This document shows positions 4,433 to 22,977 of a DNA stretch of 32,000 nt, piece after piece. Position numbers and translations under genes: made by a program. The stretch's first letter is position 1, and each line of letters begins with the position of its first letter. The DNA comes from Hahella chejuensis KCTC 2396 (lineage in GTDB: Bacteria > Pseudomonadota > Gammaproteobacteria > Pseudomonadales > Oleiphilaceae). The DNA is taken from contig NC_007645.1 in the NCBI RefSeq assembly GCF_000012985.1, forward strand, positions 3,896,581-3,928,580, in the 5' to 3' direction. The notes below the pieces were generated by a model. It worked only from the letters and a program-made list of their open reading frames with translations, was not told the origin of the DNA and did not search any database.

Positions 4433-4436
4433 ATAT

Positions 4437-6082: not shown

Positions 6083-6150
6083 AAATTATGCGTTTCACTC
6101 CTTTAAACTCCTTAACAGCTCTTTCTAGACAGACCAGCATGGGCCTACGT

Positions 6151-6420: not shown

Positions 6421-6527
6421 CCAACCACCGCTTTATAGCTCCCTTTATTAGCGCTAGCGGAGATTAGCTTTGTTCGCCTACTGCTATGGCCCAGCGCATA
6501 CTGCATAATGGTCTAATCACTGACAAT

Positions 6528-6926
6528 TCAGTAATTATCTGTCACAAGCTTTTTATCTACATATCTGATCCTGTTCTGCGGCCCATGGCCTGCATATTCG
6601 GTATAGGTTAAAAATACCGCCTTACAAATCATGCAAACATTTATATATGACTCATGGTAAGGGTAAAAATGAATGGCTATTGGAGCATCCTTGCTCCAAT
6701 AATTTGTACCGTCTACGTGATACTCGGTATAACCATTCTTTTTTATTGACTCTTCTGCGCCTTCAAACTCTGCTATAGGTTTGATATTTTTACTAGTATC
6801 TGGAGTGATATTTGACCATCCCCTTAAGTCTTGCTTTCTACAGAATTCACAGGCATCAGTATTTTCTTCCTCTATTAGTTTTAGAAGTGACTCAAAATCC
6901 ATTTTAACCAGCTTTTCTTGACTCAT
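6528..6926 (-). CDS. Hypothetical Cys-pair protein (~132 aa), cognate-position immunity ORF of orphan cassette O1
   Basis: The ATG at 6926 is preceded by AGGTG. An alternative GTG at 6935 abuts the O1 stop codon. It contains CEFC and CMIC pairs, which could form a zinc ribbon. Confidence 0.6.
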   Translation of the reverse strand: MSQEKLVKMDFESLLKLIEEENTDACEFCRKQDLRGWSNITPDTSKNIKPIAEFEGAEESIKKNGYTEYHVDGTNYWSKDAPIAIHFYPYHESYINVCMICKAVFLTYTEYAGHGPQNRIRYVDKKLVTDNY

Positions 6927-6935
6927 TATTTGCAC

Positions 6936-7823: not shown

Positions 7824-7935
7824 TTCCTATGGCTTGTCCTGGTGGTAGTAATAGACCTGTGTATTCTGGATGAACGCCAACCGATGGAAGGAGCTTGTTC
7901 TTATAGACGTAGAGTTTGTTCAGAAATAGCTAGAG
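7554..7935 (-). repeat. Rhs core-end repeat, copy O1 (5' part eroded)
   Basis: Aligns by eye with 16323..16700 of the main rhs. It is near-identical over 7554-7823 and progressively mutated over 7824-7935. Confidence 0.85.
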
Positions 7936-8052
7936 GGGCTCTGAAGAGAGAGTAGTCATTCACGCCAATCTGTACCTTCCCCCTCCTAGGGCTCAAAACA
8001 TAAAGTCTCCCACCTTTAAATCATAAACTTCAACTCACTAGCCATCAAAAGT

Positions 8053-8505
8053 TTAATCAGCACTCATTCCCTTCAGGTGCTCCCTCAGCTTTAGTAAGTG
8101 CTTGCGATAATTTTCAACCACATACACTTCATCTCTATCAAGTTTATTTGTATAAAAGTCCCTCAAATCTACTTCGCATGCATCGATCAATTCTTGATCC
8201 ATTCCTTTGTTTCGGTAATTCTCTATTTTATCTTCAGAAAACGGAAAAAATTTTATATATTCAGACCTTTTTTCGAGAATATCACTCAACGCTAATTCTG
8301 AAAAATTTTTCAGACATTCTTCTAACGCACTTATATATGCATCAGTCACAAATAAACACAGATCTATATTTTCCGAATAATATTTAACATACTCCTCACA
8401 CCCTTTCTCATCTTCATCAAAGTCATATATATACGGGGGAAGATATGAAAGCCTAGAATCCCTTATCTTAACAATCATTTTTTTCACAATATTTTTCAAA
8501 AACAT
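8053..8505 (-). CDS. Hypothetical protein (150 aa), second immunity-position ORF of cassette O2
   Basis: Intact ATG ORF, very AT-rich, same strand as the cassette. I recognise no motif. Confidence 0.5.
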   Translation of the reverse strand: MFLKNIVKKMIVKIRDSRLSYLPPYIYDFDEDEKGCEEYVKYYSENIDLCLFVTDAYISALEECLKNFSELALSDILEKRSEYIKFFPFSEDKIENYRNKGMDQELIDACEVDLRDFYTNKLDRDEVYVVENYRKHLLKLREHLKGMSAD

Positions 8506-8663
8506 AATTTTCCGGAAGAATTTTTTCCAAAATCAACTTATCAGAGACAGGCGAAGTAGTTTTATCCCTCACTTGATCATTTTTACTAAGTAACCAAATA
8601 AAAAACTCCCAATAAAACAGGCTACTTAATAACTGCCATCTAAAGTTACCAAGGGTAAAAAAA

Positions 8664-9503
8664 CTAGCCGCCCATGATCATACGGTTAAGCTCACAGATA
8701 GCACCTTCAACACTAGAGGCTATCTGAAATTTATTCACCGCCCCCCTGAGTGCTTCCTTATTTTCATCTGCGAAAACAAATTTTATTGGACTATCAGGCT
8801 CTATAAACCCCGAAGGATAAAGGCTAATATCATCTCCCCACACATAATCCAGCAATGTCAAATCTACAACGACCATATCCGGTTCAAGTAGAGTACAAAC
8901 CTCTCTAAGGGCCCACTTTATTTTTAATGCATCCTCCTCTCCACCAGAACCATGTCGATACTTTCCGACAATTTTAATGCACACTCCTCTTATTTCCTCC
9001 CCCCAGGACGAGGCCTCATAACTTATATCCGAAATATCAAACGAAACACTCTTAGAATTATTCACTATGTAATCATGCGAAGCACAGTCCACATATATAT
9101 TTTTGAAATATTTTTCAAAAGAAACAGGCAAGTCCTTTACTGCAGCCTCAATAGAATCAGAAACAATTACATTATCGATATTTCCAACCTCTTTACCTGT
9201 AACAATATAGCAGTTTCTTCTCCTCCTTATAAAGCGAGAAAACACATAATCAAATACAATTTCATTGACTTGACTTACTTTACTAACATCAAAAATCATC
9301 ACCTTGCTCTTCATAAGCTCAAAAACCATACATGAAAGCAAGTACAGCATCTTATCAATTATAACTGAGTCATATTTGTCAAAGCGAACTTCTGATATAT
9401 TAACAATTGCCACATCAGCAGTTGATCGAGGCAATTTAAGACACACTATTTCCAGCTCAAAAAAATCTGAAAAGGGTGGAATTGTAATTTTTTTCAGCTT
9501 CAT
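8664..9503 (-). CDS. Hypothetical protein (279 aa), cognate-position immunity ORF of cassette O2
   Basis: ATG start 3 nt after the stop of the O2 toxin reading frame. AT-rich, with no recognisable motif. Confidence 0.6.
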   Translation of the reverse strand: MKLKKITIPPFSDFFELEIVCLKLPRSTADVAIVNISEVRFDKYDSVIIDKMLYLLSCMVFELMKSKVMIFDVSKVSQVNEIVFDYVFSRFIRRRRNCYIVTGKEVGNIDNVIVSDSIEAAVKDLPVSFEKYFKNIYVDCASHDYIVNNSKSVSFDISDISYEASSWGEEIRGVCIKIVGKYRHGSGGEEDALKIKWALREVCTLLEPDMVVVDLTLLDYVWGDDISLYPSGFIEPDSPIKFVFADENKEALRGAVNKFQIASSVEGAICELNRMIMGG

Positions 9504-9506
9504 CTA

Positions 9507-10515
9507 TTATGATTTCCTCGTAATGACATAGTCGCTTTCTTTTTCTCTTTCAATAACTGACTTATTTAGCAATACCGCATCTGCTTTTCGACCGAGTTGA
9601 TTGCTAGTTGTCTCGCTAAATTCGTCTAAAACCTCTTGCAAAACTGGATCTAACTCTTCCATTTTGTCTGGTTTTAAACGTCCATCATCTGTAAAGTATC
9701 TTGCATATCGTCTTTGTAATTTGTCACTGGTAAAAAAGAAGTCTACGTCACTTGCTTTTAGCTCACCACGATCAACCCGATATGCGCCGCCTTTTGAAGA
9801 TACCCCCGTTAACTGCGCTCCCTCTGATTCCAATTTCCACATCATCAATCCCGAGTAAAGCAAGTTTATTTTTAAGATACCCTGATCTTTCCATAAGTTC
9901 GCCAGCATTCCTAAATCCACGAACTTTTTTCCCAGAGACAATGGTTTTTGATTCCCGATACGCTCTTCGCCTTCTTTGCCTATCACAATCTTTAGCCTGA
10001 AGTCCAAACGGATCGACCCACCCCGTGGGGTTCGGCGCATATTGATAGTTGTTGTCTCCCCCCAACAGTCCGACAGGGTCCTGATTGATGAACCGTGCGG
10101 CGCGGGGGTCATAATAACGGCGCCGGTTGTAATGCAGGCCGGTTTCTTCGTCGTAGTATTGGCCCTGGAAGCGCAGTGGGTTTTGTACGTCTTCGACGTC
10201 TTTAAGCGCCAGGTTTCCGTAGGCTTTGTAGCGGGCGGACCAGACGACTTCGCCTTCCGCGTTGGTCATTTCCTGCGGCGTGCCCAGGTGATCCAGATGG
10301 TAGTGGTAGACCTGTTTGTCCTGGATGAACGCCAGCGGGCGGAAGCTGTTGGGTTCGTAGACGTAGACTTTGTTGAGGTGGTTGCGCTGTTCCGAGAGCA
10401 ATACGTCGCCGTTCCACAGGAACTCGGTCTTGCCGAAGGCGTCCTGTTTGGCGATGCGGCGTCCCAGGGCGTCGTAGTCGTAGCAGGATTCCGACGCGCC
10501 CAGGCTCTCTCGCAG
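9507..10515 (-). pseudogene. Orphan Rhs cassette O2: core-end plus nucleotidyltransferase-like toxin, split by a frameshift in a G5/C5 run
   Basis: Track ORFs 9772..10401 and 9507..10112 are two halves of one gene. Removing one C from the C5 run at 9803-9807 joins ..DPFGLQAKDC...IGIRGSAVNG to VSSKGGAYRVDRGELKASDVDFFFTSDKL... This gives a G-S ... D-x-D pattern like Pol-beta-type nucleotidyltransferases, though the spacing is longer than the classic motif. The frame is open upstream to the TAG at 10516-10518. Confidence 0.7.
10000..10515 (-). repeat. Rhs core-end repeat, copy O2
   Basis: Encodes ESCYDYDALGRRIAKQDAFGKTEFLWNGDVLLSEQRNHLNKVYVYEPNSFRPLAFIQDKQVYHYHLDHLGTPQEM...WVDPFGL, almost identical to the main rhs at 16323..16800. 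Confidence 0.9.
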
Positions 10516-10670
10516 CTATCGACCCACTTTGAGGGGTTGCTAGACGCTCAAGTGGAACTGTAACGGGATTGACATAGAGCCTCTGCTTTAATACCGCCTC
10601 TTTCTTTTTTAAAAAGGAAGTGCTAGATAAGACTGAAATATTCACTCTTTTTATACGAAAGATATTTTTT

Positions 10671-12164
10671 CTACATTTCATCAAGCATATTTAGCGCATC
10701 GCAAACTTCTTCCCTTATAACTCTATTGTTAATATTTTTCGCCGCAATCAACCCTTCTTTTGCTATCCTTCCTGCCGGTCTGTCAAGCGTTGCTATCCAG
10801 TGCAGGCAGTCAATACATTTTATATTTATATTAAAATTAAAGTCTCCATTTAATTCATATGGAATATAATTCAAAAGAGAAGTTGTCGCCTGCACCAATA
10901 ATTCGTCATTTATTGGCTCCTCGACAAGATCGGAAATCAGATCAACAACCGCTTCAGGATGAAACTCCTCTTTATAATTATCCAAAATATCGCAGAAATA
11001 TTTCATGTAAATTTGTTTTGGATTCTCTCTGCAAAAATAAAAGAGTCTAGCAACTAGCCCCCAATTCCTGTCGTGAATGGCACTATCAATAAGAGAAGAA
11101 ATTACTTCCTGTGGAGGTGAAGAGATGTCTCTTAGATCATCGAAAGAGCAGCTGGCAATCTGATTCTTAAATTCGAGTTTGTTCATGTTTTTTTTCTTGG
11201 AGTCTATTTTTGTCATTTTAATCGGTTTAAATAATTCCTTTGTTTCTGGGCTCAGGCCATAATTCAAGCTCCCTCTCTCGCTTTTCAGGTGAATATATTT
11301 TTCTTTTTCAGATAATGCATTAGTAAATTCCGGCAAACTGGAAAATTTGCTTAACTCAGGTTGGTTGGGAGCACGAGCGCCATGTTCTTCCAACAGACTT
11401 CTCGTGCCAGCTGGCACTTCCAATTTAATAAGATGGTCGTATTTTTTCTGTGTTTTGGGTTTACTTTTATACATCAGATATAAAGGATAGCTTTTATCTT
11501 GGGTAACAAAGTAGTCTACGCCTCGGGGAACAATATTATTTTCTTTCTGCATTCTTTCCCACTCTTTATCACAAACAGCTCTATAAAAAATTTCGACATC
11601 TGCACACTGCCCTCCGGGCAGACTACTCTCTGCCGTAGGTTGCACTGCTTCAGCCTTAGGACAATCCCCAGGTTTGGCAGTCAACCCATACGGATCGACC
11701 CATCCCGTGGGGTTAAGCGCATATTGATAGTTGTTGTCTCCCCCCAACAGTCCGACAGGGTCCTGGTTGATGAACCGTGCGGCGCTGGGGTCATAATAAC
11801 GGCGCCGGTTGTAATGCAGGCCGGTTTCTTCGTCGTAGTATTGGCCCTGGAAGCGCAGTGGGTTCTGCACGTCTTCGACGTCTTTAAGCGCCAGGTTGCC
11901 GTAAGCTTTGTAGCGGGCGGACCAGACGACTTCGCCTTCCGCGTTGGTCATTTCCTGCGGCGTGCCTAGGTGGTCCAGATGGAAGTGATAGACCTGTTTG
12001 TCCTGGATGAACGCCAGCGGGCGGAAGCTGCTGGGTTCGTAGACGTAGACTTTGTTGAGGTGGTTGCGCTGTTCCGAGAGCAGCACGTCGCCGTTCCACA
12101 GGAACTCGGTCTTGCCGATGCGGCGCCCTAAAGCGCCGTATTGTAAATAAGCCGCTTGATCCAG
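10671..12164 (-). CDS. Orphan Rhs cassette O3: core-end plus unique toxin domain fused in frame to an immunity-like domain
   Basis: The frame is open from the TAA at 12165-12167 to 10671. The core-end ..WVDPYGL is followed by a ~165 aa unique domain (EIFYRAVCDKEWERM...), then ..KIDSKKKN-MNKLEFKNQ... continues into a ~160 aa helical domain with no stop codon. The junction sits on a T8/A8 run at 11188-11195. Relative to the other copies, 18 nt of the core-end are missing near 12110 (..GRRI-GKTEFLW..). Confidence 0.75.
   Translation of the reverse strand: MDQAAYLQYGALGRRIGKTEFLWNGDVLLSEQRNHLNKVYVYEPSSFRPLAFIQDKQVYHFHLDHLGTPQEMTNAEGEVVWSARYKAYGNLALKDVEDVQNPLRFQGQYYDEETGLHYNRRRYYDPSAARFINQDPVGLLGGDNNYQYALNPTGWVDPYGLTAKPGDCPKAEAVQPTAESSLPGGQCADVEIFYRAVCDKEWERMQKENNIVPRGVDYFVTQDKSYPLYLMYKSKPKTQKKYDHLIKLEVPAGTRSLLEEHGARAPNQPELSKFSSLPEFTNALSEKEKYIHLKSERGSLNYGLSPETKELFKPIKMTKIDSKKKNMNKLEFKNQIASCSFDDLRDISSPPQEVISSLIDSAIHDRNWGLVARLFYFCRENPKQIYMKYFCDILDNYKEEFHPEAVVDLISDLVEEPINDELLVQATTSLLNYIPYELNGDFNFNINIKCIDCLHWIATLDRPAGRIAKEGLIAAKNINNRVIREEVCDALNMLDEM
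11683..12164 (-). repeat. Rhs core-end repeat, copy O3
   Basis: Near-identical to 16323..16790 apart from scattered SNPs and an 18-nt internal deletion. Confidence 0.9.
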
Positions 12165-12196
12165 TTATTCGCTACTTCAGCGTCAAGCTCCTAAAC

Positions 12197-12509
12197 CTGC
12201 GGGTCGATGATATCAACCGCGTTACAACCTAGTCAGATCTCGTTTGTGTAGCGTTCATTGTGTGTGTTTTCTAGTGCTATAACGTAGGTAAGGCGTGTAC
12301 TCAAAAGTCTGCGCCTTATAGCCACATTGTGGGCGTGTGGAAAGCCCAAGAGGCTTACTCATCACAGTGATCACGACAGGGTAAAGTACACTGAGCGTTT
12401 GGATGAGGCAGGAATTAGGACCTCTCCTTCTGGTAGCGTAGAAGACTTCTACGACAACGCCTTGCCAGAAATAGTCAACGACTTGTACAAGACAGAAGTC
12501 ATCTACTAA
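12197..12509 (+). pseudogene. IS3-family transposase (OrfB integrase core) remnant
   Basis: Fragments lie in two frames with stops. LRVDDINRVTT*SDLVCVAFIVCVF* resembles W.aDiTYv.T..G..YvAfviDvF. ..LTHHSDHDRVKYTERLDEAGIRTSPSGSVEDFYDNALPEIVNDLYKTEVIY resembles HSDrG.QY.s..YterL.eaGi..S.GsvGdsYDNAlaE..ng.yK.Evi. I saw no inverted repeats. Confidence 0.7.
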
Positions 12510-12593
12510 AACACCACCTGAAAAGGGCTGGATAAACTTCGATCAGCCCTTCTCACTTATGTGAGTGGTTCAACATTTGTCAAAATATTGACA

Positions 12594-12914
12594 TCAATAT
12601 ATATCCTTCCTCTCAATATTTTCTATATCAATCTTCAATAACTCTAAAAAATCAGGCCCATACTGCTCTCCATTAACATGCAATTCTATCTCAACCCCAC
12701 TTTCTTTAAGTTCATTTACCATCTCATAAACCAATCTCAAACCACAGTAAAACTCTGAGGCTTTCAGCCGGACATTACATATAGAGATTTTTCTTTTTAT
12801 TGTTTCCGCGACAGATGAAACAGGGACATCAATATATTTTATAATTATTTTTATGGTTGAAGCCAGATCGTCTTCACTAACGACAAAAACCTCAACATTC
12901 AAATCTTTTTTCAT
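12594..12914 (-). CDS. Hypothetical protein (106 aa), second immunity-position ORF of cassette O4
   Basis: Intact ATG ORF, AT-rich, same strand. No motif recognised. Confidence 0.5.
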   Translation of the reverse strand: MKKDLNVEVFVVSEDDLASTIKIIIKYIDVPVSSVAETIKRKISICNVRLKASEFYCGLRLVYEMVNELKESGVEIELHVNGEQYGPDFLELLKIDIENIERKDIY

Positions 12915-13017
12915 TTAGCTATATGTCCTGCTTTTGCAACCACACCATCTTTTTTCTTCGTATCACAAATTTCCCTGTATAGTTACCTACAATACCTCAG
13001 AAGCACTTTGATTAAAC

Positions 13018-13500
13018 TCAATCTTCATGAGCATCATGGTGCTTATTGTATGCATTAATCACCACACGAACCCAATCATCTATATTGATATCATCCTGAG
13101 TTTCAACTGAACGCAAATATGAGAACATTTGAGAGGATGACGTCATAGCCCAAATTGAAAAAAGACAAGCTTCGTAATCGCCCTCTGTCAAAGAAGGATA
13201 TTCATCTAATATTAGTGACTTAACCTTATCGTTACACCATATACTTTCTAGTATATCTGAAACAAACACATTCCCATTTAAAGCAGCCAGTCCTTGGCGC
13301 ACCACTTCTCCATCTTTCTCTGAGCTTGACCAGTGAAGCTTACTAACCAAGTCGAAGTTAGTTTCTGATGTAGAGCCATGAAGCAAAAGACCCGCTCTTA
13401 TTCTATCTGTTGCTGCCGGCAGCTCCTCTTTATCGATCAGTTTTGTCGAGAGTTCATATAAAATTTTAAGAAGAATTTGTTTCCCGCTACCCTTTCTCAT
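13018..13500 (-). CDS. Hypothetical protein (160 aa), cognate-position immunity ORF of cassette O4; paralog of 1745..2209
   Basis: Its ATG overlaps the toxin stop in a 4-nt ATGA (13497-13500). Full-length similarity to 1745..2209. Confidence 0.7.
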   Translation of the reverse strand: MRKGSGKQILLKILYELSTKLIDKEELPAATDRIRAGLLLHGSTSETNFDLVSKLHWSSSEKDGEVVRQGLAALNGNVFVSDILESIWCNDKVKSLILDEYPSLTEGDYEACLFSIWAMTSSSQMFSYLRSVETQDDINIDDWVRVVINAYNKHHDAHED

Positions 13501-13890
13501 TCTACAGTTACCTTTTTAACTTTTTCATTAAACTCATCCAATAAGTTTATGCCAATACCGAATGCTCCCGGTTCATTATCTTTCGTAAATACTCCGTCAG
13601 GAAAGCCGGCTTCTCCCACATCCATATCCCAATAGTCTTCGGATAGGCTTTCGAGCCACTGAATGGTACCTGGCTCTACAAACATAGTTACTGTTTTCTC
13701 ATGTCCTTTCTTGCTTAAGCTTTCTTGCTTATTCTTGACAGATACCCATTTTGCGCCTCTGCTGCCATGTTTTGGAACTAAACCTTTAGCTTCCATCATC
13801 TGAGCTGCTTCATCCTGATTTGTGCGCCTTACAATAGTCTCATACGAGTCTTTATCTTTCTTTTTCTTCTTCGGGCAATCTTTCGACTTA
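13497..13890 (-). pseudogene. 3' part of the cassette O4 toxin domain, separated from its Rhs core-end by the IS insertion
   Basis: The frame is open from the IS boundary: SKDCPKKKKKDKDSYETIVRRTNQDEAAQMMEAKGLVPKHGSRGAKWVSV...KVTVE*. It lies in the same frame as ..DPLGLMAK at 14856-14880 once the IS and one TTA copy are removed. Confidence 0.8.
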
Positions 13891-14856
13891 GTAACTATCT
13901 CATAACCTCATTGACGCCCCTGTAGCCGCCACATCCGCCGAAACCATAACAGACCACATGCCAATTGCAGCAATCCCAGATAGTTGCTGTCCTTTTTGTC
14001 ATAGCGAATCAGTAACGCACGGCACTTAGACAGCCAACCAAACGTGCGCTCCACTACCCAACGCCGGGGCTTTCCACTTGGATGACGGTCCGCTGGCTGC
14101 GCCTCCTCGCCAATTCGGCAGATATGCGGTATGTAGTCATGCCGGGCTGCCACGTCTTCGCTCGCCACATTGTCATACCCCTTATCCAGGCATAAATGCT
14201 GCCGCGCCTCCACCGTTGGAGCCGGACGCTCTACCACAATCGACTCCAGCGTCGCTTCCAGCAGCTTATGGTCGTTGACATTGGCTCCGGCGATGACGAG
14301 TCCCAAGGGGCCTCCCTCGGCTTCCACCAGCAGGCTTTTCTTGGTTCCCTTCTTGCCTCGGTCTGTCGGGTTCGGCCCCACATTCTCCCCCCCCAAAGCG
14401 GGCTTTCCCCAGCCAGCCGTCCGCACTTTGCCATTCCCAGTCCACCCCTTCCAGTTCCTGGCAGTCTCGCAATAGACTCGCCCAGATCTTCTCCATCACG
14501 CCGTTTTTACTCCAGCGCTGAAACCAGCGATGGACCGTGGCGTCATCCCCAAATCGGCGGGGCAACTGGTTCCACTGACAGCCTGAACGCATCCGAAAAA
14601 TAATCCCGTTCAAATAGCCCCTCCAGTTGCCGATGGGGCGGCCACCCTTGGCGCTGGGTTGCCAGTCTTCTTTTAAAATGGGTTCGATTCGTAGCCATAG
14701 CTCGTCCGGTACTTCCCATAGAGTGTCCAGGGGTTTCGATTTACTGGACGGGGCGCTTGAGTCCTTTTGTGACATGACGTTTCCTTATCAGAGAAGTGGC
14801 GCCTCAGTGAACCGGCAAAGGTTAAAAAATTCAAGTGGGGGTTATGAGATAGTTAC
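13891..14856 (-). mobile_element. IS5-family insertion sequence (IS1031/IS427-like), 966 bp, with 17-bp terminal inverted repeats and a 3-bp TTA target duplication
   Basis: The left end GTAACTATCTCATAACC (13891-13907) is the exact reverse complement of GGTTATGAGATAGTTAC (14840-14856). TTA flanks both ends (13888-13890 and 14857-14859). The element carries a two-frame DDE transposase. Confidence 0.9.
13908..14775 (-). CDS. IS5-family DDE transposase in two overlapping frames (orfA 14266..14775, orfB 13908..14426)
   Basis: orfA contains ..CQWNQLPRRFGDDATVHRWFQRW... orfB contains ..GPNPTDRGKKGTK...LDKGYD...WVVERTFGWLSKCRALLIRYDKK. The frames meet at a C8/G8 run (14387-14394). One G fewer would give a continuous ..GKARFGGENVGPNPTDRGK.. 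protein. Confidence 0.85.
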
Positions 14857-15374
14857 TTAGCCATTAGACCCAAAGGATCCACCCACTCTATGGGATTCAG
14901 CACATATTCGTAGTTGCTCTCACCTCCCAGTAACCCTGCAGGGTCCTGGTTGATGAACCGTGCGGCGCTGGGGTCATAATAACGGTGCCGGTTGTAATGC
15001 AGGCCGGTTTCTTCGTCGTAGTATTGGCCCTGGAAGCGCAGTGGGTTCTGTACGTCTTCGACGTCTTTCAGCGCCAGGTTGCCGTAGGCTTTGTAGCGGG
15101 CGGACCAGACGACTTCGCCTTCCGCGTTTGTCATTTCCTGCGGCGTGCCCAGGTGATCCAGATGGTAGTGGTAGACCTGTTTGTCCTGGATGAACGCCAG
15201 CGGACGGAAACTGTTGGGTTCGTAGACGTAGACTTTGTTGAGGTGGTTGCGCTGTTCCGAGAGCAGCACGTCGCCGTTCCAGAGGATCTCGGTCTTGCCG
15301 AAGGCGTCCTGTTTGGCGATGCGGCGTCCCAGGGCGTCATAGTCGTAGCAGGATTCCGACGCGCCCAGGCTCTC
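14853..15374 (-). pseudogene. Orphan Rhs cassette O4, 5' part: core-end truncated by the IS insertion (the stop codon is supplied by the IS terminus)
   Basis: ..ESCYDYDALGRRIAKQDAFGKTEILWNGDVLLSEQRNHL...GGESNYEYVLNPIEWVDPLGLMAK*. The TAA at 14853-14855 lies inside the IS inverted repeat. The frame is closed upstream by the TGA at 15375-15377. Confidence 0.85.
14865..15374 (-). repeat. Rhs core-end repeat, copy O4
   Basis: Near-identical to 16323..16800, except that the last ~60 nt before DPLGL have diverged. Confidence 0.9.
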
Positions 15375-15469
15375 TCACAGCTATCAACTCACTTTGAAGG
15401 ACAACTAGACGCACACATTGATCTGTTACTTAAATGACCCAGAGCTTCCCCCTCCCTGCCCTATTAGAG

Positions 15470-15793
15470 TTAAATCTTCTTAATAAGAGAGTTAATTTCT
15501 TTTTTTAAACTTTCAAGAAGTTTCTTTTTCTCTTCACCATCTACATTCAATGAACATATTTCATACACTATACTTCTTGCTTTAGAGTATACATGACTGG
15601 GAGTAATAGGTTTTTTAAAATTTTTAAAAACCTCTCGCTCCTCTTCAGTAAGGCTAATTTGGACGCTTGTCGGCATCATCACGAGATTGTTTTCTTTAAT
15701 ATCTATCTGATGCGCAAAGAATGTGATGCGAGCACGACCAACTTCTGTGTAAAGAGCTCCACCATGTTCTTGGAAAATGCACAACTGTTTCAT
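15470..15793 (-). CDS. Hypothetical protein (107 aa), cognate-position immunity protein of the main Rhs toxin
   Basis: ATG start 10 nt after the rhs stop codon, same strand, AT-rich. No motif recognised. Confidence 0.65.
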   Translation of the reverse strand: MKQLCIFQEHGGALYTEVGRARITFFAHQIDIKENNLVMMPTSVQISLTEEEREVFKNFKKPITPSHVYSKARSIVYEICSLNVDGEEKKKLLESLKKEINSLIKKI

Positions 15794-15803
15794 ATAGTTT
15801 TGT

Positions 15804-18800
15804 CTAACCTTTTTTATATGGTTCTACTTTATGCTTTTGTATATTGGTGACTTTAGGATTTTTATTTAAAGCGGGCTCTTCGTACTCTTTCCATATAGCG
15901 CCTTCATAAGCCTGAACTACATTTACATCTCCTGAAGCACGCTCAGCATAATCCTCTGATATCGCGGACCATAACCGCCTTCCGTCTGTTGGCTTTCCTG
16001 ATCCCCAGTCTTCGTAGATGAAGAACTCGTCCAGATATTTCCAATTATTAAATATATTTCCTCCAGGAGTCATCTCCAGAGTGGTCGCCCCTGGAATACT
16101 TTCTCTCAAATTTAACGCAAACTCTTCTGCTTTAGGGTAATTTCCTGACCAGAATACTGCGCCATTATTTGGGCTACTTAAATCGAGAAGCTCAGCCATT
16201 TTATCAAAGTCTCTGGCTTGAAAAAGCTTCCATGCAGCAGATGCCTCCGTAGAATTTTTAAACTGCCCTTTGGAACGCTGCTGGAACTCGTTCCACCTAT
16301 TTGGTTTGGACTCCTTACAAGTTAACCCAAACGGATCCACCCACCCCGTGGGATTCGGCGCATATTGATAGTTGTTGTCTCCCCCCAACAGTCCAACGGG
16401 GTCCTGGTTGATAAATCGTGCGGCGCTGGGGTCATAATAACGGTGCCGGTTGTAATGCAGGCCGGTTTCTTCGTCGTAGTATTGCCCCTGGAAGCGCAGT
16501 GGGTTCTGTACGTCTTCGACGTCTTGCAGCGCCAGATTGCCGTAGGCTTTGTAGCGGGCGGACCAGACGACTTCGCCTTCCGCATTGGTCATTTCCTGCG
16601 GCGTGCCCAGGTGGTCCAGATGGTAGTGGTAGACCTGTTTGTCCTGAATGAACGCCAGCGGACGGAAGCTGTTGGGTTCGTAGACGTAGACTTTGTTGAG
16701 GTGGTTGCGCTGTTCCGAGAGCAATACGTCGCCGTTCCACAGGAACTCGGTCTTGCCGAAGGCGTCCTGTTTGGCGATGCGGCGTCCCAGGGCGTCGTAT
16801 TGGTATTCGGTCTTTTGCCCGTCTTTTTCGATGGCGATCAGCTGGTTCTGCTTGTTGTACTGGTAACGGGTCTCCAGCTTGCCGCCTTTGCCGCGTTTTT
16901 CACGAATCAGGTTGCCGGCGGCGTCGTATTCGAAGTGGCGGTCGCCATGGAAATTCAGGCGGTTGCCCTTGGCCTGATTCTGACCATCGAGAATATTGCC
17001 CGCCGGGTCGAAGGCGAATTCTTCGTTGCAATAGCCTTCGACGGTTTTCAGGCGATCCAGGGCGTCGTAACGGTAATGAGTGGTCCCTTTTCTCAGGTCG
17101 TCGATGAGCGCCAGATTGCCGCTGGCGTCATAACCGTAGCTGCGCTCGATGATGCGCGCTTTGCTCTGACGATGACTGACCCGATGACGGATCAGGCGTC
17201 CCATGACGTCGTAGTCGTAGCGGGATTCCGCCGCGCCTTGGCGGCGACGTAATTCGCGTCCGTCCTCATCCCGTTCGATGCTGGCCAATACGTCGCCATT
17301 GAAACTGGCCTGGGTGAACAGGCCATGGCGGTCATAGCCGAAGCCGAGGACGCCGCCATCCGGCAACAGGGATTGGATGCGGGCGCCCAGTGGATTGTAT
17401 TCATGACGCAGTCGCTGCCCGTCCTGGATTTCCTCCGCCAGACGTCCTGTCGGCGTATAGGCGAATTCCAGGGTGCGGTAAGGGTTGCTGGCCTGCGTCA
17501 ATTGACCGTTGGCGTTGTAGGCGAAGCGGCTGATGTCGCCGTCCGGGCTGTGCTTTTCACGCAGGCGCCCCATGGGGTCGCGCTTGAACAGCGTGGTGTG
17601 TTGCGCGCGAATGCGTTCGTCGTCATGTACGCCTTCAATATGCGCTTTCAGATGGCCCGCCGGGTCATACTGATATTGCTGCACCCGGCCGTCGAAGCCG
17701 ATTTCCTGAATCAGACGCTCATTGCGGTCATAGGCCAGTTCATAGCGCTCGCCCTTTTCGTTGATCAGGCCGATCAGGTTGCGTTCTTTATCGTACAGAT
17801 ACTCAAATGTGTGGCCGGCCGGGTCGATGCGTTTGCGCACCTGGGCCAGGCCGTCATACACGTATTCGGTGCAGCGGCCGGCGGCGTCGATAAAGTGCGT
17901 CAGCTGGTCGTTGGCGTTGTAACGCATTTTCAGGACGGAGCCGTCCGGGCGTTTGACTTCGGTGACGTTGCCGTTGCGGTCGTACTGATAGGCCGTGGTT
18001 TGTCCCTGATGATCGGTGGCGGCGCGGACCTGTCCCTGCGCGTTGTAGGCGTAACGGGTGGTGTGCTGGTTGTCCGTTTCGCTGACCAGTTGGCCTTCCC
18101 GGTTCCACTGCAGCTCCCGGGCCTGTCCCAGGGCGTCGATGATCTTTTGCGGCAGCCCCTGGGCGTTGTATTCGTACTGGGTCTGCGCGCCTTCTGGATC
18201 AGTGATGCGGGCCAGCAGGCCCTGTTCGTTGTACTCGCGACGCCAGACATGGCCGAGGGCGTTGGTGATCGCCACCGGCATGCCGTCGTCGTTGTAGTCG
18301 ATTTTGTAATGGCCGCCGTTGGCGTCGATCAGGGCGGTTAACTGGCCGTTGTCATTGTAGGCGTAGTGGGTGCTGTGGCCGTTGGGATCGGTCTGCTCCA
18401 CCAGATTACCGGCGTTGTCGTACGCGCGTCGGGTGATTCCGCCTTCCGGATCGATTTCTTTAACGATCTGGCCGCGATCGTCATAGTGGAAAGTGGTTCT
18501 GCCGCCGTTGCTGTCGATGGCGTGGGAGGTCTTGTTGGCCGGGTCCCATTCGAAGCGGTAGTCATAGACGCCCTGGTCGCCCCACTGACGCACACAGCGG
18601 GCGGCTTTGTCGTAGCGGCTCCACTCGAAATAAAAGCTGAAGCCGGTCTTCAGGGTGCGGCGGGTGATGACGTGGTTGCGATAGGCGTAGGATTCACCCG
18701 CGCCGGCCGGGTCCCGCACCTGCGCCAGATCCTGGGCGTCGTCGTATTCGTACCTGACCAGGGTGTCCACATCGCCGTCCGCGCGCAGCGACTGGATCTC

Positions 18801-20042
18801 GCAGATCAGTCCCTGGGCGTTATGCAGCACGTACAGACGTTTGCCCCAGCTGGTCTGAATAAGAGTGACCGGTCGCTCGTAGCCGTCCAGGTCCTGCCAG
18901 TATTGAATGCGCACGCCATTGCCGACGCCATCCAGCAATCCTTCCAGACGGTAGACGCCGCCGGCGCCCACAAACAGGCGGATGGGCTCGCCGCGTTGTT
19001 TAAGTACGTAATGGGTGTCGTCAATCCGGCGCAGTTCCAGATGTTCAGCGGCGTTGCGGACGGTCTGGCCGGGTTCCGCCAAAGGAAAATCAATATAGCG
19101 GCCTTCGTCCGTGGTGAAGACCAAACGTCCTTCCTGCTCCTCCAGCTGCTGACACAGCATGTGGGTCCAGCCCACGCCCAGACCGCGTTGATGGGGATTG
19201 GAGGATTTGTAGGTGCGCTTCCAGATAATCGGCAGAGGGCCGGCGACGGTGAAATCGGTCAGATCCAGCAATTCCTCGCCGGTGACCATGCTGATAGGTT
19301 CGCCGCTGGTGCAGACCTTTTTGTTATCCGGCGTGGTCGCGCCATTGTCATTGCCGCCGGATTTTTCGCTGACGCTGCTGTCGCTCGAGGGTGACGCGGA
19401 GCCAGCTCCGCCGGATTTTTCGCACTCCTCGCAGAAAGGTAACTCATCTTTGGCGGTGTTCTTAAGAGCCTGTGCTTGCGCCTGCTCATCCACCGCGCTT
19501 TCCGGCGCTGCGGGAGCCGCCTGGGCGGGAGGAGCGGAATAGGTCTTGGGTGGAGCCTGATGACTGGTGGACTCTCTGGGTTTGCTTTCCCAACCTGGGT
19601 TGCCATTTAGCGCAGTGACATCCATGACTTCGCCGGTAATCGCCGGCGGTGGTGGTGGTGCGGGGTTGGCGCGATTAATCAGACGCACGGCCAAAGTCAG
19701 TTCAGACACATTGGGCTTGAGGCCGTCTTCGCTCTCGCTCACAACAGAGCAAAACGGCTTTTTCTTGTCGGTAAAGACCAACAGGATTTCGCCTCGTTCG
19801 AGCCCTTTAACAAAGTCTTCTTTCCACTTACGCAGATGCCGTGAACCTCGGCCGGGAAACCCGCCAAACGATGAGCGAAAGTGACTCCCCTTTAAGTGAT
19901 TAACGACATCGCCGACTTTGGCGTCTATGTTCAGACAACGCTCGGCATAGCTGGAAGCGAAAAAGGGGGATTCTACAAACGGCAGGTCCGCAACGGTGAT
20001 GTCAGACCAATGCTTAAATACATAACTGCGAGTGGAATACAT
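15804..20042 (-). CDS. Full-length Rhs/YD-repeat polymorphic toxin (~1412 aa from the ATG at 20042) with an ADP-ribosyl cyclase/CD38-like C-terminal toxin domain
   Basis: Rhs N-terminal plug motif CTSGEPISMVTGEELLDLTDF..IWKRTYKS. Dozens of YD repeats (..YDxxGxL..) follow. The core-end motif is ..YYDPSAARFINQDPVGLLGG..PTGWVDPFGL, and a ~170 aa AT-rich tail comes after it. The ATG at 20042 has AAGGA ~12 nt upstream. The track start at 20075 is a TTG. Confidence 0.9.
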   Translation of the reverse strand: MYSTRSYVFKHWSDITVADLPFVESPFFASSYAERCLNIDAKVGDVVNHLKGSHFRSSFGGFPGRGSRHLRKWKEDFVKGLERGEILLVFTDKKKPFCSVVSESEDGLKPNVSELTLAVRLINRANPAPPPPPAITGEVMDVTALNGNPGWESKPRESTSHQAPPKTYSAPPAQAAPAAPESAVDEQAQAQALKNTAKDELPFCEECEKSGGAGSASPSSDSSVSEKSGGNDNGATTPDNKKVCTSGEPISMVTGEELLDLTDFTVAGPLPIIWKRTYKSSNPHQRGLGVGWTHMLCQQLEEQEGRLVFTTDEGRYIDFPLAEPGQTVRNAAEHLELRRIDDTHYVLKQRGEPIRLFVGAGGVYRLEGLLDGVGNGVRIQYWQDLDGYERPVTLIQTSWGKRLYVLHNAQGLICEIQSLRADGDVDTLVRYEYDDAQDLAQVRDPAGAGESYAYRNHVITRRTLKTGFSFYFEWSRYDKAARCVRQWGDQGVYDYRFEWDPANKTSHAIDSNGGRTTFHYDDRGQIVKEIDPEGGITRRAYDNAGNLVEQTDPNGHSTHYAYNDNGQLTALIDANGGHYKIDYNDDGMPVAITNALGHVWRREYNEQGLLARITDPEGAQTQYEYNAQGLPQKIIDALGQARELQWNREGQLVSETDNQHTTRYAYNAQGQVRAATDHQGQTTAYQYDRNGNVTEVKRPDGSVLKMRYNANDQLTHFIDAAGRCTEYVYDGLAQVRKRIDPAGHTFEYLYDKERNLIGLINEKGERYELAYDRNERLIQEIGFDGRVQQYQYDPAGHLKAHIEGVHDDERIRAQHTTLFKRDPMGRLREKHSPDGDISRFAYNANGQLTQASNPYRTLEFAYTPTGRLAEEIQDGQRLRHEYNPLGARIQSLLPDGGVLGFGYDRHGLFTQASFNGDVLASIERDEDGRELRRRQGAAESRYDYDVMGRLIRHRVSHRQSKARIIERSYGYDASGNLALIDDLRKGTTHYRYDALDRLKTVEGYCNEEFAFDPAGNILDGQNQAKGNRLNFHGDRHFEYDAAGNLIREKRGKGGKLETRYQYNKQNQLIAIEKDGQKTEYQYDALGRRIAKQDAFGKTEFLWNGDVLLSEQRNHLNKVYVYEPNSFRPLAFIQDKQVYHYHLDHLGTPQEMTNAEGEVVWSARYKAYGNLALQDVEDVQNPLRFQGQYYDEETGLHYNRHRYYDPSAARFINQDPVGLLGGDNNYQYAPNPTGWVDPFGLTCKESKPNRWNEFQQRSKGQFKNSTEASAAWKLFQARDFDKMAELLDLSSPNNGAVFWSGNYPKAEEFALNLRESIPGATTLEMTPGGNIFNNWKYLDEFFIYEDWGSGKPTDGRRLWSAISEDYAERASGDVNVVQAYEGAIWKEYEEPALNKNPKVTNIQKHKVEPYKKG
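16323..16800 (-). repeat. Rhs core-end repeat, master copy inside the main rhs
   Basis: This segment (..YDALGRRIAKQDAFGKTEFLWNGDVLLSEQRNH... to ..WVDPFGL) recurs at four downstream loci. Confidence 0.9.
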
Positions 20043-20308
20043 TCGGAGTACGTCCTTTGTAAAGCGACACAGCAAGCCAAACGGGCCATGGCGTCATGAA
20101 AACGGTTACTGGTAACTGGGGGCGATCAGCGAATACCTTAAAACTAACAACGACACATACCGCCCACTTGCCTTACGACACGTCGCGCCAATCTCCATGA
20201 GCTTGATTTACGCGCATACGTAGCCAGTTAAGCGTTAATACTGGGAATTTTCCTTCATTATTCAGGTGGTTATTTCGTGATGTAAGCAACGTTTTTGTGA
20301 TGATGGCG

Positions 20309-21286
20309 TCAATTATCTTCTGACTTGCTCTTAAACATCTTCAAGGGATCAGCTAAAGCTTCTGCAATTAGACTCTTAACCCTCCGGTTGCAAAAGCGAC
20401 TTTTCACCGGTCCCGCGAATTTCGGATCATGCATAACAATACTGATCAACGCAATGTCCGGCGCCCAACCTGCGTAGTTCAATGCCTGGCGGAGTCCGTT
20501 AACATGCGCGCCATGCTCTTCCGTCTCGCAACCATTCACCCAGGATTTATAGCAAGGTGGAGAGCCTCCATCGCCGATAGCGGCCACTTCAAACCCAACA
20601 TCTTCTGTTTGGCCTTTGAACCGGAACATTTTAGGGTTAAAAGCCCATTTTGGTCCGCTCCACATCAGATAAGCCAGTTCCATCAGCCCCTGTTTAGAGA
20701 CATAGCGTTCTCCATCAAACTCTACAATCAGTCCAGAGTATAAGTGAGCTAACTCAAACATCGCTTTTCTGAGCTGAAAGAAGTCAGGCAAACGATTATG
20801 AAACACTGACGGATCAAGAGTGAATTTAATGGAACTGCCGCTCGGTCCGTCGTATCTGAAACTTTCCAACGGCGCTAATACATCGCCTTTTCCGAAGACC
20901 TGCCTCCATCGCCATGCGCCATTGGAGCTTTCGATAGTCAGCTTTTCTGAAACTGCGTTTACCGCCGCCAGCCCAAGTCCGCCTCCCAGCACATGTATAT
21001 GAGGAGCATGGTCATCCGCCGTTGGTTTATCGTGATGATGGGTGAGATAGCGTTCGACAAGATTGTGGGCGCTATCTTCTACTGGAAATGGAAAGCCCGG
21101 GCCGTCATCAATGACTATAATTTCACACTCACTGACATCCACCTTCAATGTCGTCGCCCTACCCGCCAAAAATAAATCCACAACATTTGCGACTAGCTCG
21201 TAGATAACATGATTGACGGCATTGTGGTCGATATCGCCAAAGTACATGCCAGGACGTTTTCTCACTGCGTCTTTAAAGGACAACAT
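20309..21286 (-). CDS. GyrB/ParE N-terminal-like GHKL ATPase plus transducer domain protein (325 aa) lacking TOPRIM and tail
   Basis: It aligns with the E. coli GyrB N-terminal 43-kDa region. DAVRKRPGMYFGD matches DAVRKRPGMYIGD. HVIYELVANVVDLFLAG matches HMVFEVVDNAIDEALAG. VIDDGPGFP matches VQDDGRGIP. GGGLGLAAVNAVSEKL matches GGLHGVGVSVVNALSQKL. DVGFEVAA...EEHGAHVNGLRQAL matches GIGVEVAL...GGTHLAGFRAAM. HDPKFAGPVKSRF matches PDPKFSSQTKDKL. The ATG is preceded by AGGAG. Confidence 0.8.
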   Translation of the reverse strand: MLSFKDAVRKRPGMYFGDIDHNAVNHVIYELVANVVDLFLAGRATTLKVDVSECEIIVIDDGPGFPFPVEDSAHNLVERYLTHHHDKPTADDHAPHIHVLGGGLGLAAVNAVSEKLTIESSNGAWRWRQVFGKGDVLAPLESFRYDGPSGSSIKFTLDPSVFHNRLPDFFQLRKAMFELAHLYSGLIVEFDGERYVSKQGLMELAYLMWSGPKWAFNPKMFRFKGQTEDVGFEVAAIGDGGSPPCYKSWVNGCETEEHGAHVNGLRQALNYAGWAPDIALISIVMHDPKFAGPVKSRFCNRRVKSLIAEALADPLKMFKSKSEDN

Positions 21287-21666
21287 GCTTCATTCTCCTG
21301 CGCTGAATTATCCCTCTTCGCCCAATACATCTGCTTATGGCCTCTATCCTCGTAATCTTTCACCAGCTTCAAAGCTTCGGATTGAGTCATGTCGCCCTGG
21401 ATGAAGAAGGTATTGTTGTTATCGTCCTGACGCCAGACTGACCAGTTTGGGGTTGCCGTTTCAGCAAGGTCTGACGGTTCGAATGCCGTTTGATCCAAAG
21501 GACACTCTTTAATGACGAAATGCTCCGTCAGGCCCTGAAATGGCGTTTGTTGAGAAAAATCTGCAATGGCTTGATCGGCTTTGGCTCGGGAGGTGAACAC
21601 GCCGATAAAACCAGAAGGGGTCGAGTGATGGGAGGGGGAGAAAAATAACGCGTAGACGAGTTGCAT
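21262..21666 (-). CDS. Hypothetical protein (134 aa), overlaps the start of the GyrB-like gene by 25 nt
   Basis: Intact ATG ORF. The C-terminal segment WSVWRQDDNNNTFFIQGDMTQSEALKLVKDYEDRGHKQMYWAK resembles a widespread small domain of unknown function (..RQDDNGN.f.v.......A..l...fE.rGHKQ.YW). That similarity is recalled from memory. Confidence 0.6.
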   Translation of the reverse strand: MQLVYALFFSPSHHSTPSGFIGVFTSRAKADQAIADFSQQTPFQGLTEHFVIKECPLDQTAFEPSDLAETATPNWSVWRQDDNNNTFFIQGDMTQSEALKLVKDYEDRGHKQMYWAKRDNSAQENEACCPLKTQ

Positions 21667-21825: not shown

Positions 21826-22977
21826 TCACGCCGCGCGCTGCAAAATTTCCCGACTGACATCCAAGGTGATTGCGCGATTTTCACCCAGTGCGGTCATGCC
21901 GTGTTTTTCCAGCGCGTCCACCAGGGCCGGAACGGCTGTGTCGCCTTCGATGCCAGCATGAGAGAGTCTGATGGGGATCTCCAAACTGCTGTAAAGGCGT
22001 TCGATGGCTTCGATCGTGGTTTCCGCCAGGTTGTCGTCCTGAGGCAGATTGAACACATTGCGTCCCATTTGCTCCAGCTTGGCGCGTTTGTCCGCGATCT
22101 GCACGCGCAGCAACGAGGGCTGTACGATAGCCAAAGTGCGAGCATGGTCAACGCCATAGAGGGCGGTGATTTCATGGCCGATCATGTGAGTCGCCCAATC
22201 CTGCGCCACCCCGGCGCCGATCAATCCGTTCAACGCCTGGTTGGCGGTCCACATCAGGTTGTTGCGCCAGACATCGTTGTCACGCTGCGGAAACTCTTCC
22301 GCCAGACGCACCAGGTTACGCAACAGCGCTTCCGCGTAGCCATCCTGCACCCAGGCGTCGCTGTTATGGGACAAGTACTGCTCACAAATATGCACGAATG
22401 CATCGACGACGCCATTGGCGACCTGACGCTCCGGCAGAGATTTGATCACATCCGGGTCCAGCACCGCGACGCGAGGCAACACCAGTGGAGAGCCGAAGGA
22501 CAGCTTTTCTTTGGTCGCGGCTTTGGTGACCACAGAGCCGCCGTTTGATTCCGAGCCGGTAGCCGGCAGCGTCAGCACCACGCCCAAAGGCAGCGCGCGG
22601 GCGACGGTGTATTTGCGGGTGAGAATATCCCAGCCATCGCCGTCATACAGCGTGGCGGCGGCGATATATTTGCAGCCGTCAATGACAGAGCCGCCGCCGA
22701 CCGCCAGGATGTAATCCACCTTCTCTTTGCGCGCCAGCTCCACGGCTTTATCCAGCGTTTCCACCGTGGGATTGGCTTCCACGCCGGAAAACTCCAGCCA
22801 GGAATGATCTTTCAGGGCGTCTTTGATTTGATCGTAAACGCCGTTCTTCTTGATGGAGCCGCCGCCGTACACCACTAACACCTTTTGATCTGCGTCGATC
22901 AATGAGGCTAATTTGGCGATGCGGCCTTGTCCAAACTCAATACGGGTGCTGTTGGAAAAAGAAAAATTCATACTCAC
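21826..22977 (-). CDS. yqhD: Iron-containing (group III) NADPH-dependent alcohol dehydrogenase, YqhD-like
   Basis: Colinear with E. coli YqhD: ..TRIEFGQGRIAKL...VLVVYGGGSIKKNGVYDQIKDALK...LEFSGVEANP..ETL..AVELAR.EKVDYILAVGGGSVIDGCKYIAAA.. The metal-binding His region ..DWATHMIGHEITALYGVDHA.. is present. Confidence 0.85.
   Translation of the reverse strand: MSMNFSFSNSTRIEFGQGRIAKLASLIDADQKVLVVYGGGSIKKNGVYDQIKDALKDHSWLEFSGVEANPTVETLDKAVELARKEKVDYILAVGGGSVIDGCKYIAAATLYDGDGWDILTRKYTVARALPLGVVLTLPATGSESNGGSVVTKAATKEKLSFGSPLVLPRVAVLDPDVIKSLPERQVANGVVDAFVHICEQYLSHNSDAWVQDGYAEALLRNLVRLAEEFPQRDNDVWRNNLMWTANQALNGLIGAGVAQDWATHMIGHEITALYGVDHARTLAIVQPSLLRVQIADKRAKLEQMGRNVFNLPQDDNLAETTIEAIERLYSSLEIPIRLSHAGIEGDTAVPALVDALEKHGMTALGENRAITLDVSREILQRAA

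Follow-up and report, generated by a model that had tools for sequence, protein, structure and literature searches.

The stretch of DNA analysed here, which we call the window, comprises 32,000 nucleotides (nt) of Hahella chejuensis KCTC 2396 (NC_007645.1, positions 3,896,581-3,928,580 of the forward strand; coordinates given below are those of the window). Between a Fe-alcohol dehydrogenase gene (21826-22977) and an rhs gene encoding 1423 amino acids (aa; 15804-20075), it holds two co-oriented open reading frames (ORFs) on the minus strand that overlap by 25 nt. The first encodes a small protein with an unclassified C-terminal mini-domain; the second encodes a 325-aa protein that corresponds to the complete 43-kDa module of GyrB, with its GHKL ATPase and transducer domains. 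This second protein belongs to a real and uncharacterised family of GyrB paralogues that are devoid of TOPRIM and carry a rewritten ATP lid. The features on which the argument relies are listed here, with the evidence for each in brackets.

21262-21666, minus strand: small ORF, 134 aa in KCTC 2396 (conserved form of 120 aa, 21307-21666)
21487-21666, minus strand: N-terminal DUF7336-like domain of the small protein, residues 1-60 (PF24024 matches of its relatives)
21313-21453, minus strand: C-terminal mini-domain of ~47 aa, 'WSVWRQDDNNN...GHKQMYW', residues 72-118 of the small protein (profile search)
21304-21306, minus strand: TCA codon at the position of the TAG stop of other strains (three-strain DNA alignment and translation)
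21295-21298, minus strand: GGAG ribosome-binding site of the GyrB-like gene, 8 nt 5' of the ATG (same in three Hahella strains)
20309-21286, minus strand: 325-aa TOPRIM-less GyrB43-like protein, member of the 'H-x-P-H-x-H lid' family (Pfam, profile, AlphaFold2, Foldseek)
20672-21286, minus strand: GHKL (Bergerat-fold) ATP-binding domain, residues 1-205, without N-terminal arm (invariant E30, N34, D37, D60, G64)
20993-21034, minus strand: rewritten ATP-lid segment HDKPTADDHAPHIH, residues 85-98, the family signature (family alignment)
20309-20671, minus strand: transducer domain, residues 206-325, and stop codon, with a QTK loop that reads GPVK (Pfam DNA_gyraseB match)
20043-20308, minus strand: 266-nt spacer between the stop of the GyrB-like gene and the likely rhs start, an ATG at 20042 (gene calls of NBU794 and KA22)

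Both ORFs are real genes under purifying selection. Across three Hahella strains, the 325-aa gene has a ratio of nonsynonymous to synonymous substitution rates (dN/dS) of 0.10-0.15 and the small gene one of 0.16-0.19 (0.03-0.05 for the flanking alcohol dehydrogenase gene), and because of these values the two cannot be taken for chance ORFs. Gene order is the same in all three strains (resistance-nodulation-division pump, Fe-alcohol dehydrogenase, small gene, GyrB-like gene, rhs), and the small and GyrB-like genes are probably co-transcribed in Hahella. These three syntenic strains have to be counted as a single evolutionary observation, not as three independent ones.

The original prediction, made from the letters of this DNA, had described the pair as two overlapping co-oriented genes. 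This is correct for KCTC 2396 but not for NBU794 and KA22, in which a TAG stop ends the small gene and leaves an 18-nt spacer before the GyrB-like gene. In KCTC 2396 the TAG has become TCA, which adds 14 codons to the small gene by read-through into the GyrB-like gene and thereby produces the 25-nt overlap. The overlap is real, yet it is the strain-specific outcome of the loss of a stop codon and not a conserved feature. On the side of the GyrB-like gene, an in-frame TGA (21290-21292) two codons 5' of the ATG excludes a longer N-terminus in the Hahella protein.

The G+C content (GC) of the pair, 0.48-0.49, lies between that of core genes (0.58-0.61) and that of the island downstream (0.43), with rhs at 0.56-0.60; at third codon positions (GC3) the two genes have 0.49 and 0.57, against 0.71-0.75 in core genes. 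Since both measures set the pair apart from core genes, it was probably acquired horizontally, in line with what had been proposed from its intermediate GC. Between the window and KA22 (L091 10381-11355), the synonymous substitution rate (dS) is 0.10 for the GyrB-like gene, 0.46 for the small gene and 0.37 for the alcohol dehydrogenase gene; the low value of the GyrB-like gene suggests recent recombination or gene conversion between strains.

A GyrB-like module with a rewritten ATP lid

The 325-aa protein exceeds the Pfam cut-offs for HATPase_c and DNA_gyraseB, and has no Pfam match to the Toprim domain. A profile built from 38 relatives can be aligned over its whole length to residues 1-360 of Escherichia coli GyrB (E=1e-64), and the C-terminus of the protein falls at about GyrB residue 360-365. 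The NCBIfam gyrB and parE models match it at 1e-28 to 1e-41 and remain far under their cut-offs, with 135.5 bits against 882.4 for the gyrB model TIGR01059 and 97-98 bits against 723-900 for parE. Its AlphaFold2 model has a predicted local distance difference test score (pLDDT) of 91 and a predicted template modelling score (pTM) of 0.89, with low confidence only around residues 85-100, and in Foldseek it superposes on GyrB 43-kDa structures with template modelling (TM) scores of 0.83-0.87. The whole-length correspondence with GyrB43 that had been read from the sequence is thereby confirmed. When full-length GyrB was used as a tblastn query, the match was limited to residues 36-378 (28.6% identity), and nothing was recovered for residues 379-820 that could represent a TOPRIM remnant. 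The protein does end before TOPRIM, as had been claimed. Because it has neither TOPRIM, the DNA-cleavage domain, nor the parts that bind GyrA, a role as topoisomerase subunit is impossible.

This architecture is shared by a whole family. The homology search returned ~58 family clusters, mostly of 320-345 aa and with 27-50% identity, and genuine GyrB fragments rank below them. Members come from Hahella, Beggiatoa, Thiofilum, Marinagarivorans, Nostocaceae, Candidatus Uabimicrobium, Polyangiaceae and Eremiobacterota, so that the family spans Gammaproteobacteria, Cyanobacteria, Planctomycetota, Myxococcota and Eremiobacterota/Vulcanimicrobiota; it is rare and patchy in distribution. A motif scan of viral contigs gave 0 matches, and tblastn of phages and plasmids yielded only matches of at most ~30% identity, belonging to gyrB/parE-type genes or to a different lineage, with no family member among them. 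Neither protein of the pair matches any PADLOC-DB 2.0 model at E<=1, and literature searches found no paper on the lid-motif family or on DUF7336.

These results refute the possibility that the 325-aa gene is a decaying duplicate of gyrB or parE, accompanied by a spurious small ORF, and we give it practically no weight. The truncated architecture is all that would suggest it. Against it stand the 26-31% identity to genuine gyrB/parE (no more than 31% among the matches listed), the missing TOPRIM remnant, the conserved ribosome-binding site, the existence of a family of the same length in many phyla, and the dN/dS of both genes (0.10-0.19). The identity baseline comes from a scan of reference genomes keyed to the RKRPGMY motif, in which the matches listed were housekeeping gyrB/parE genes, with no family member among them. 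The original prediction had named pseudogene status as what would overturn it, and in this respect it stands.

Residue conservation was scored on 38 aligned family members and mapped to E. coli GyrB via the HMMER alignment. The residues of the Bergerat fold are kept: E30, N34, D37, D60 and G64 (E42, N46, D49, D73 and G77 of GyrB) are invariant in the 38 members, which bears out the retention of the first four that had been predicted, and so are H85 (GyrB H99) and G105 (GyrB G119), while G62 is nearly invariant. Motif I (E-x3-N-x2-D) and motif II (D-x-G-x-G) of the GHKL superfamily are therefore present; of motif III just G103-x-G105 is conserved, and motif IV appears as G150-S151, with T or S at position 151 across the family. 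The further claim that the GGxxGxG lid is retained was right in part: the equivalent of G117, G103, is nearly invariant and that of G119 invariant, but the equivalent of G114 is a leucine.

It is the lid segment that sets the family apart. GyrB L98-S112 (LHAGGKFDDNSYKVS) becomes x-H-[DN]-x-P-T-A-D-x-H-A-P-H-[IV]-H, and the Hahella lid HDKPTADDHAPHIH (residues 85-98) aligns to GyrB H99-S112. The canonical LHAGGKF...YK[VI]SGG is thus replaced in the 325-aa protein; across the family, G101-G102 change to [S/K]-P, K103 to T, Y109 to P and K110 to H. Four family-specific invariants, H93, P95, H96 and H98, occupy the positions of GyrB N107, Y109, K110 and S112. The resulting H.PH.H motif is found in 58 of the 60 top matches, against YK[VI]SGG in its place in 60 genuine GyrB fragments, and it is diagnostic, separating the family from genuine GyrB. 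In the transducer, SSQTK has become AGPVK: Q335 is replaced by a nearly invariant proline (P293), and the K337 equivalent (position 295; K295 in Hahella) is, with few exceptions, Lys or Arg. The changes at Y109/K110 and Q335 had been spotted in the Hahella protein, where they correspond to P95/H96 and P293. Most members keep a GyrB-like 'EY....IKVL' N-terminal arm with equivalents of Tyr5 and Ile10 (P0023, for example, starts with MEEQYDSSSIKVL, versus MSNSYDSSSIKVL in E. coli); the GyrB-like proteins of Hahella have no arm of this type.

Some members are longer. Extensions without Pfam match are present at the N-terminus in L113 (~200 aa; gene at 1951-3486) and at the C-terminus in P0010 (~135 aa; residues ~340-478). 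A SUKH/SMI1 identity considered for the L113 N-terminal extension, and for the gene downstream of the L115 member, was dropped when no Pfam match was found.

The state of the nucleotide pocket bears on one possible function, the sequestration of small molecules, in which the protein would titrate antibiotics directed at the ATP site of GyrB (aminocoumarins, cyclothialidines). In its favour, the adenine-pocket equivalents of D73, N46 and T165 are kept. However, R136, the key coumarin contact, is N, S or D in the family, the R76/E50 pair has become P/L, the lid closing over the pocket has been rewritten, and there is no biosynthetic cluster nearby. We consider this function very unlikely.

The small protein and its genomic company

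A word-based search found orthologues of the small protein, of 120-121 aa, only in Hahella (CR1, KA22, NBU794). An exhaustive HMMER search with the Hahella profile returned 582 cluster representatives at E<1e-3 out of 1.84 billion; a handful of these are full-length relatives of ~123 aa, and most match residues 72-119 alone. The mini-domain delimited in this way, with the consensus WSVWRQDDNGNxFLVxxGLTxxEAxxLVxxxExRGHKQxYW, is covered by no model in Pfam or NCBIfam. Some proteins, 55-90 aa long, consist of this domain by itself. In others it is found attached to a variety of partners, chiefly enzymes that bind small molecules, which marks it as promiscuous and as yet unclassified. We observed it at the C-terminus of DHFR, glyoxalase/bleomycin-resistance-type, CbiX and membrane proteins, and at the N-terminus of a macro-domain protein (P0136, P0153, P0215, P0277, P0135).

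The N-terminal half resembles DUF7336 (PF24024), which the window protein matches at 15.4 bits (E=0.017; gathering cut-off 25 bits) and the full-length relatives P0123 and P0238 at E=1.8e-13 (50.6 bits) and 5e-11 (42.7 bits). The AlphaFold2 model of the small protein has two beta-beta-alpha-beta domains joined by a disordered linker. A fold search of the PDB gave no significant match; BFVD returned weak matches to small uncharacterised phage proteins, one of them annotated as DUF7336. The idea that the two halves arose by internal duplication was rejected (hhalign probability 0.4%).

To judge the pair as a module, we compared other loci of the family: six long contexts (Thiofilum, Marinagarivorans, a related gammaproteobacterium, Uabimicrobium, Nostoc and a metagenomic contig), 26 metagenome loci retrieved by means of a DNA pattern specific to the motif, and three further contigs. 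A separately encoded relative of the small protein occurs at none of the ~27 other family loci, and the adjacency is thus confined to Hahella. The metagenome locus L093 encodes a family member that carries the mini-domain as an N-terminal fusion, in the place of the missing arm. The fusion architecture is found in four full-length proteins (P0272-P0275) of 372-377 aa and is conserved down to 42% identity; one fusion protein comes from a Vulcanimicrobiota metagenome-assembled genome. Given the rarity of the mini-domain (582 in 1.84 billion), one adjacency and one independent fusion among ~30 lineages go far beyond chance. The comparison of sequences therefore supports a functional link between the two Hahella genes, which would not be a general property of the family. 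In this narrower form the predicted two-gene module is partly borne out: adjacency in the three Hahella strains and the P0272-P0275 fusions speak for it, and the absence of the small gene from the ~27 other loci speaks against its generality. Likewise, the conserved pairing anticipated in other genomes is missing as separate genes outside Hahella but has a counterpart in the fusions of the Vulcanimicrobiota clade. A rule that armless members always have a mini-domain partner was rejected, since P0039 is armless and has no mini-domain.

In a Pfam census of the 77 proteins that flank the gene at ~27 independent loci, any one domain occurred at two loci at most, and the rhs, type VI secretion system (T6SS) or defence neighbours that the original prediction proposed to look for did not recur. 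In effect, the family gene stands by itself, in surroundings that vary from locus to locus. Genes of toxin-antitoxin systems or mobile elements are often near it (PIN, MazEF, AbiEii, Zeta, AlpA and transposases). The genes directly upstream of three members are as follows: an AlpA-type prophage regulator with a 1-nt overlap (L110, 4669-4995; E=1e-18), a weak WapI-like immunity match (L004, 7359-7760; E=0.024), and a small HEAT_2 protein with a 20-nt overlap (L002, 7697-8011). We regard these neighbours as hints of mobile-element or immunity contexts, none of them recurring. In a metagenomic gammaproteobacterium (L089 4493-9077), recF, the housekeeping gyrB, thyA and the GyrB-like gene follow each other in this order.

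Such a resemblance to GyrB raises the possibility that family members modulate gyrase or topoisomerase IV. They would form heterodimers at the N-gate with GyrB or ParE, and the half-dead enzymes would tune or poison supercoiling, for instance to the benefit of a mobile element. The GyrB fold, the near-canonical exchanged arm of most members (as in P0023) and the one member located two genes downstream of a housekeeping gyrB fit this possibility. Yet an identity to GyrB of 26-31% makes conservation of the interface doubtful, the Hahella protein has no arm to exchange, and the family was not found on the plasmids or phages searched. We judge modulation of this kind quite improbable.

The rhs gene and the toxin island

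The original prediction had also remarked that the pair stands directly upstream of rhs, instead of the usual vgrG, PAAR or Eag/DUF4123 accessory genes. A role as Rhs or T6SS accessory (chaperone, adaptor or co-effector) for the downstream rhs would agree with the co-orientation of the pair and its position directly upstream of rhs in three Hahella strains. These strains are not independent, however, and rhs adjoins none of the ~27 other family loci, nor is there an RHS domain among the 77 flanking proteins. In addition, 266 nt separate the pair from the likely rhs start, its GC (0.48) departs from that of rhs (0.56-0.60), and the island possesses its own DUF4123 adaptor, at 5105-6082. According to Pfam, neither protein of the pair matches the VgrG, PAAR, Eag/DUF1795, DUF4123 or DUF2169 families. 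For these reasons (gap, composition, no rhs at other loci, adaptor elsewhere) the rhs link of the pair is not supported, its position beside rhs is a chance juxtaposition, and an accessory role is extremely unlikely. The spacer between the GyrB-like gene and rhs contains no Rfam match, the tRNA scan was likewise negative, and promoter-like or terminator-like sites are no more frequent in it than expected by chance.

The rhs gene and the island beyond it have features of their own. The ~260 N-terminal residues of Rhs (19260-20042), ahead of DUF6531, include a Pro/Ala/Ser-rich linker and have no match to PAAR or any other Pfam family. Its C-terminal tip (15804-16370, minus strand, residues ~1236-1423) reaches 24.4 bits for Pfam Rib_hydrolase (cut-off 25), and in the PDB it matches 9ro8, 'ADP-ribosylcyclase toxin' (E=4e-4), and a 'Ribonuclease' chain, 9ouf (E=7e-5). 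The tip thus weakly resembles ADP-ribosyl cyclase toxins, and the downstream 107-aa ORF of 34% GC (15470-15793) is likely its immunity gene. The low-GC island (~1300-15800, 0.43) contains orphan rhs C-terminal cassettes at 14853-15269, 10671-12086, 9772-10401 and 6936-7823. These carry the RHS core-end motif, and their toxin tips have no Pfam assignment. Interspersed with them are, besides the DUF4123 adaptor, Tsi6 (6154-6420), a gene of the SUKH/SMI1_KNR4 type (3716-4432) and part of a DDE transposase (13908-14426). Neither the rhs cassettes of the island nor the neighbours of family members yielded a papain-like or Fic domain. Neither protein of the pair matches an immunity family, and the pair lies upstream of rhs, not downstream of a toxin domain.

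Proposed function and known relatives

The explanation that we favour, at about even chances, is that the 325-aa protein is a nucleotide-gated clamp or switch of the GyrB43 type with a modulatory partner, acquired horizontally and placed beside rhs by chance. A family protein would most likely still bind nucleotide and, once bound, dimerise; it would thus work as a clamp or switch gated by ATP and would not cleave DNA. Both steps are suggested by the conservation of the catalytic base, the Mg-binding Asn, the adenine Asp, the G-x-G and the transducer Lys, and by an arm that is usually kept. The His-rich lid (H-x7-H-x-P-H-x-H) should alter what the closed lid touches, be it phosphates (via His), a metal ion or another protein as partner. 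Most likely, the small protein serves the ATPase as its own binding or regulatory partner and acts at the usual docking site of the arm, since the mini-domain is fused at the arm position in the Vulcanimicrobiota clade.

Several points weigh against this explanation. We infer ATP binding, hydrolysis and dimerisation alike from residue conservation, and several residues through which GyrB contacts nucleotide are replaced (K103 to T, Y109 to P, K110 to H, Q335 to P), so that the ligand may differ from ATP. The Hahella protein is devoid of the arm that aids dimerisation in GyrB. As for the partner, association with the small protein is seen in just two lineages; the armless P0039 has a LysR gene upstream and no mini-domain partner; and full-length relatives of the small protein have a single contig context (L090), which ends straight after the gene.

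A different function is suggested by work on interbacterial toxins published in 2025. The protease Cpe1, delivered by T6SS or contact-dependent inhibition (CDI), cuts the lid of GyrB and ParE between G101 and G102 (LHAG|GKF), close to a tyrosine in the ATPase domains of both proteins that is a target of Fic toxins, Tyr105 in the case of ParE (PMC12136450). The 325-aa protein could be a decoy or immunity protein that mimics the target: it would capture lid-directed effectors, among them papain-like proteases of the Cpe1 type and Fic toxins that adenylylate the lid tyrosine, and would itself be undamageable because the attacked residues are replaced, while its small partner could assist or report the binding of the effector. 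The rewritten segment covers both toxin hot spots, G101-G102 being [S/K]-P and Y109, the GyrB residue modified by Fic toxins, being an invariant proline, and the rest of the domain is conserved. Moreover, the Hahella gene borders an island of interbacterial toxin and immunity genes, and PIN, MazEF, AbiEii, Zeta, weak WapI-like and HEAT_2 neighbours occur at other family loci. On the other hand, a papain-like or Fic toxin is found neither in the island nor near family members, immunity genes normally come after their toxin, no neighbour type is recurrent, and a passive decoy could do without the invariance of the catalytic Glu, the Mg-binding Asn and the transducer Lys. The known immunity protein of Cpe1, Cpi1, is described as an unrelated competitive binder (PMC12136450). 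Taken together, we think a decoy of this sort unlikely. The same holds, in our estimate, for a wider version, in which the family would be a toxin-proof mimic of GyrB/ParE, a decoy or guard against Cpe1-type proteases, Fic AMPylases and phage gyrase inhibitors, whose nucleotide switch (with the mini-domain partner in Hahella) would neutralise or signal the attack.

The ATPase domain of GyrB is a well-studied antibiotic target and a model clamp, and a family of paralogues such as this one would show the use of the N-gate uncoupled from DNA cleavage. Since the rewritten segment coincides with the sites attacked by Cpe1 and Fic toxins, the family is also a concrete candidate for protection by target mimicry; if true, this would constitute a new class of immunity, based on the mimicry of an essential enzyme. 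In practical terms, members are labelled 'DNA gyrase subunit B' or 'ATP-binding protein' in public records, and the H-x-P-H-x-H signature sorts them from gyrase. The 47-aa mini-domain, with its 582 clusters and fusions to several enzymes, is itself an unclassified domain.

With E. coli GyrB43 (1EI1, 4WUB, 4PRV) the family shares the two-domain fold, Bergerat motifs I and II and apparently IV, the equivalents of G117 and G119, the Lys at K337, the RKRPGMY motif and, in most members, the arm with its Tyr5 and Ile10 equivalents. Unlike GyrB, the 325-aa protein is complete without TOPRIM or a GyrA-binding tail, and the family transducer does without the ~20-residue loop of GyrB. The closest known likeness of the small protein is to DUF7336: the N-terminal half of its relatives matches PF24024, and the beta-beta-alpha-beta fold is common to a DUF7336 phage protein, but the window protein is sub-threshold and its C-terminal mini-domain lies outside the model.

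The N-terminal domain of MutL, Topo VI-B and prokaryotic MORC/paraMORC proteins (PMC2292703) follow the same architectural principle, a nucleotide-gated, dimerising GHKL clamp with a transducer and without a nuclease domain of its own. They are different sequence families, and the best non-gyrase matches of the window protein are marginal. MORC-type proteins, furthermore, sit in restriction-modification or defence operons, unlike the lid-motif family.

Nearer counterparts exist among GyrB-like proteins. PDB 3CWV, 'DNA gyrase, B subunit, truncated' (369 aa), a structural-genomics entry from Myxococcus xanthus with no known functional paper, is likewise naturally TOPRIM-less, free-standing and of similar size. 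It forms a separate, more divergent lineage, as the family profile matches it at 1e-30 versus 1e-64 for E. coli GyrB, and even the myxobacterial member P0052 matches it at 4e-17 versus 3e-44. A second counterpart is the 'ATP-binding protein' WP_331742737.1 (391 aa; L121 4252-5427) of a linear plasmid of Streptomyces sp. NBC_01006. TOPRIM-less and GyrB43-like, it keeps an arm (EYSASHIQVL) and has lost LHAGGKF, but its lid LSFGSKPHAGYAISGG is without H-x-P-H-x-H and its identity to the window protein is ~30%. Its gene adjoins one for a helicase-associated-domain protein, and similar copies are present on three other Streptomyces plasmids. Because the lid-motif family, 3CWV and the Streptomyces plasmid protein are separate lineages, TOPRIM-less GyrB paralogues must have arisen on more than one occasion.

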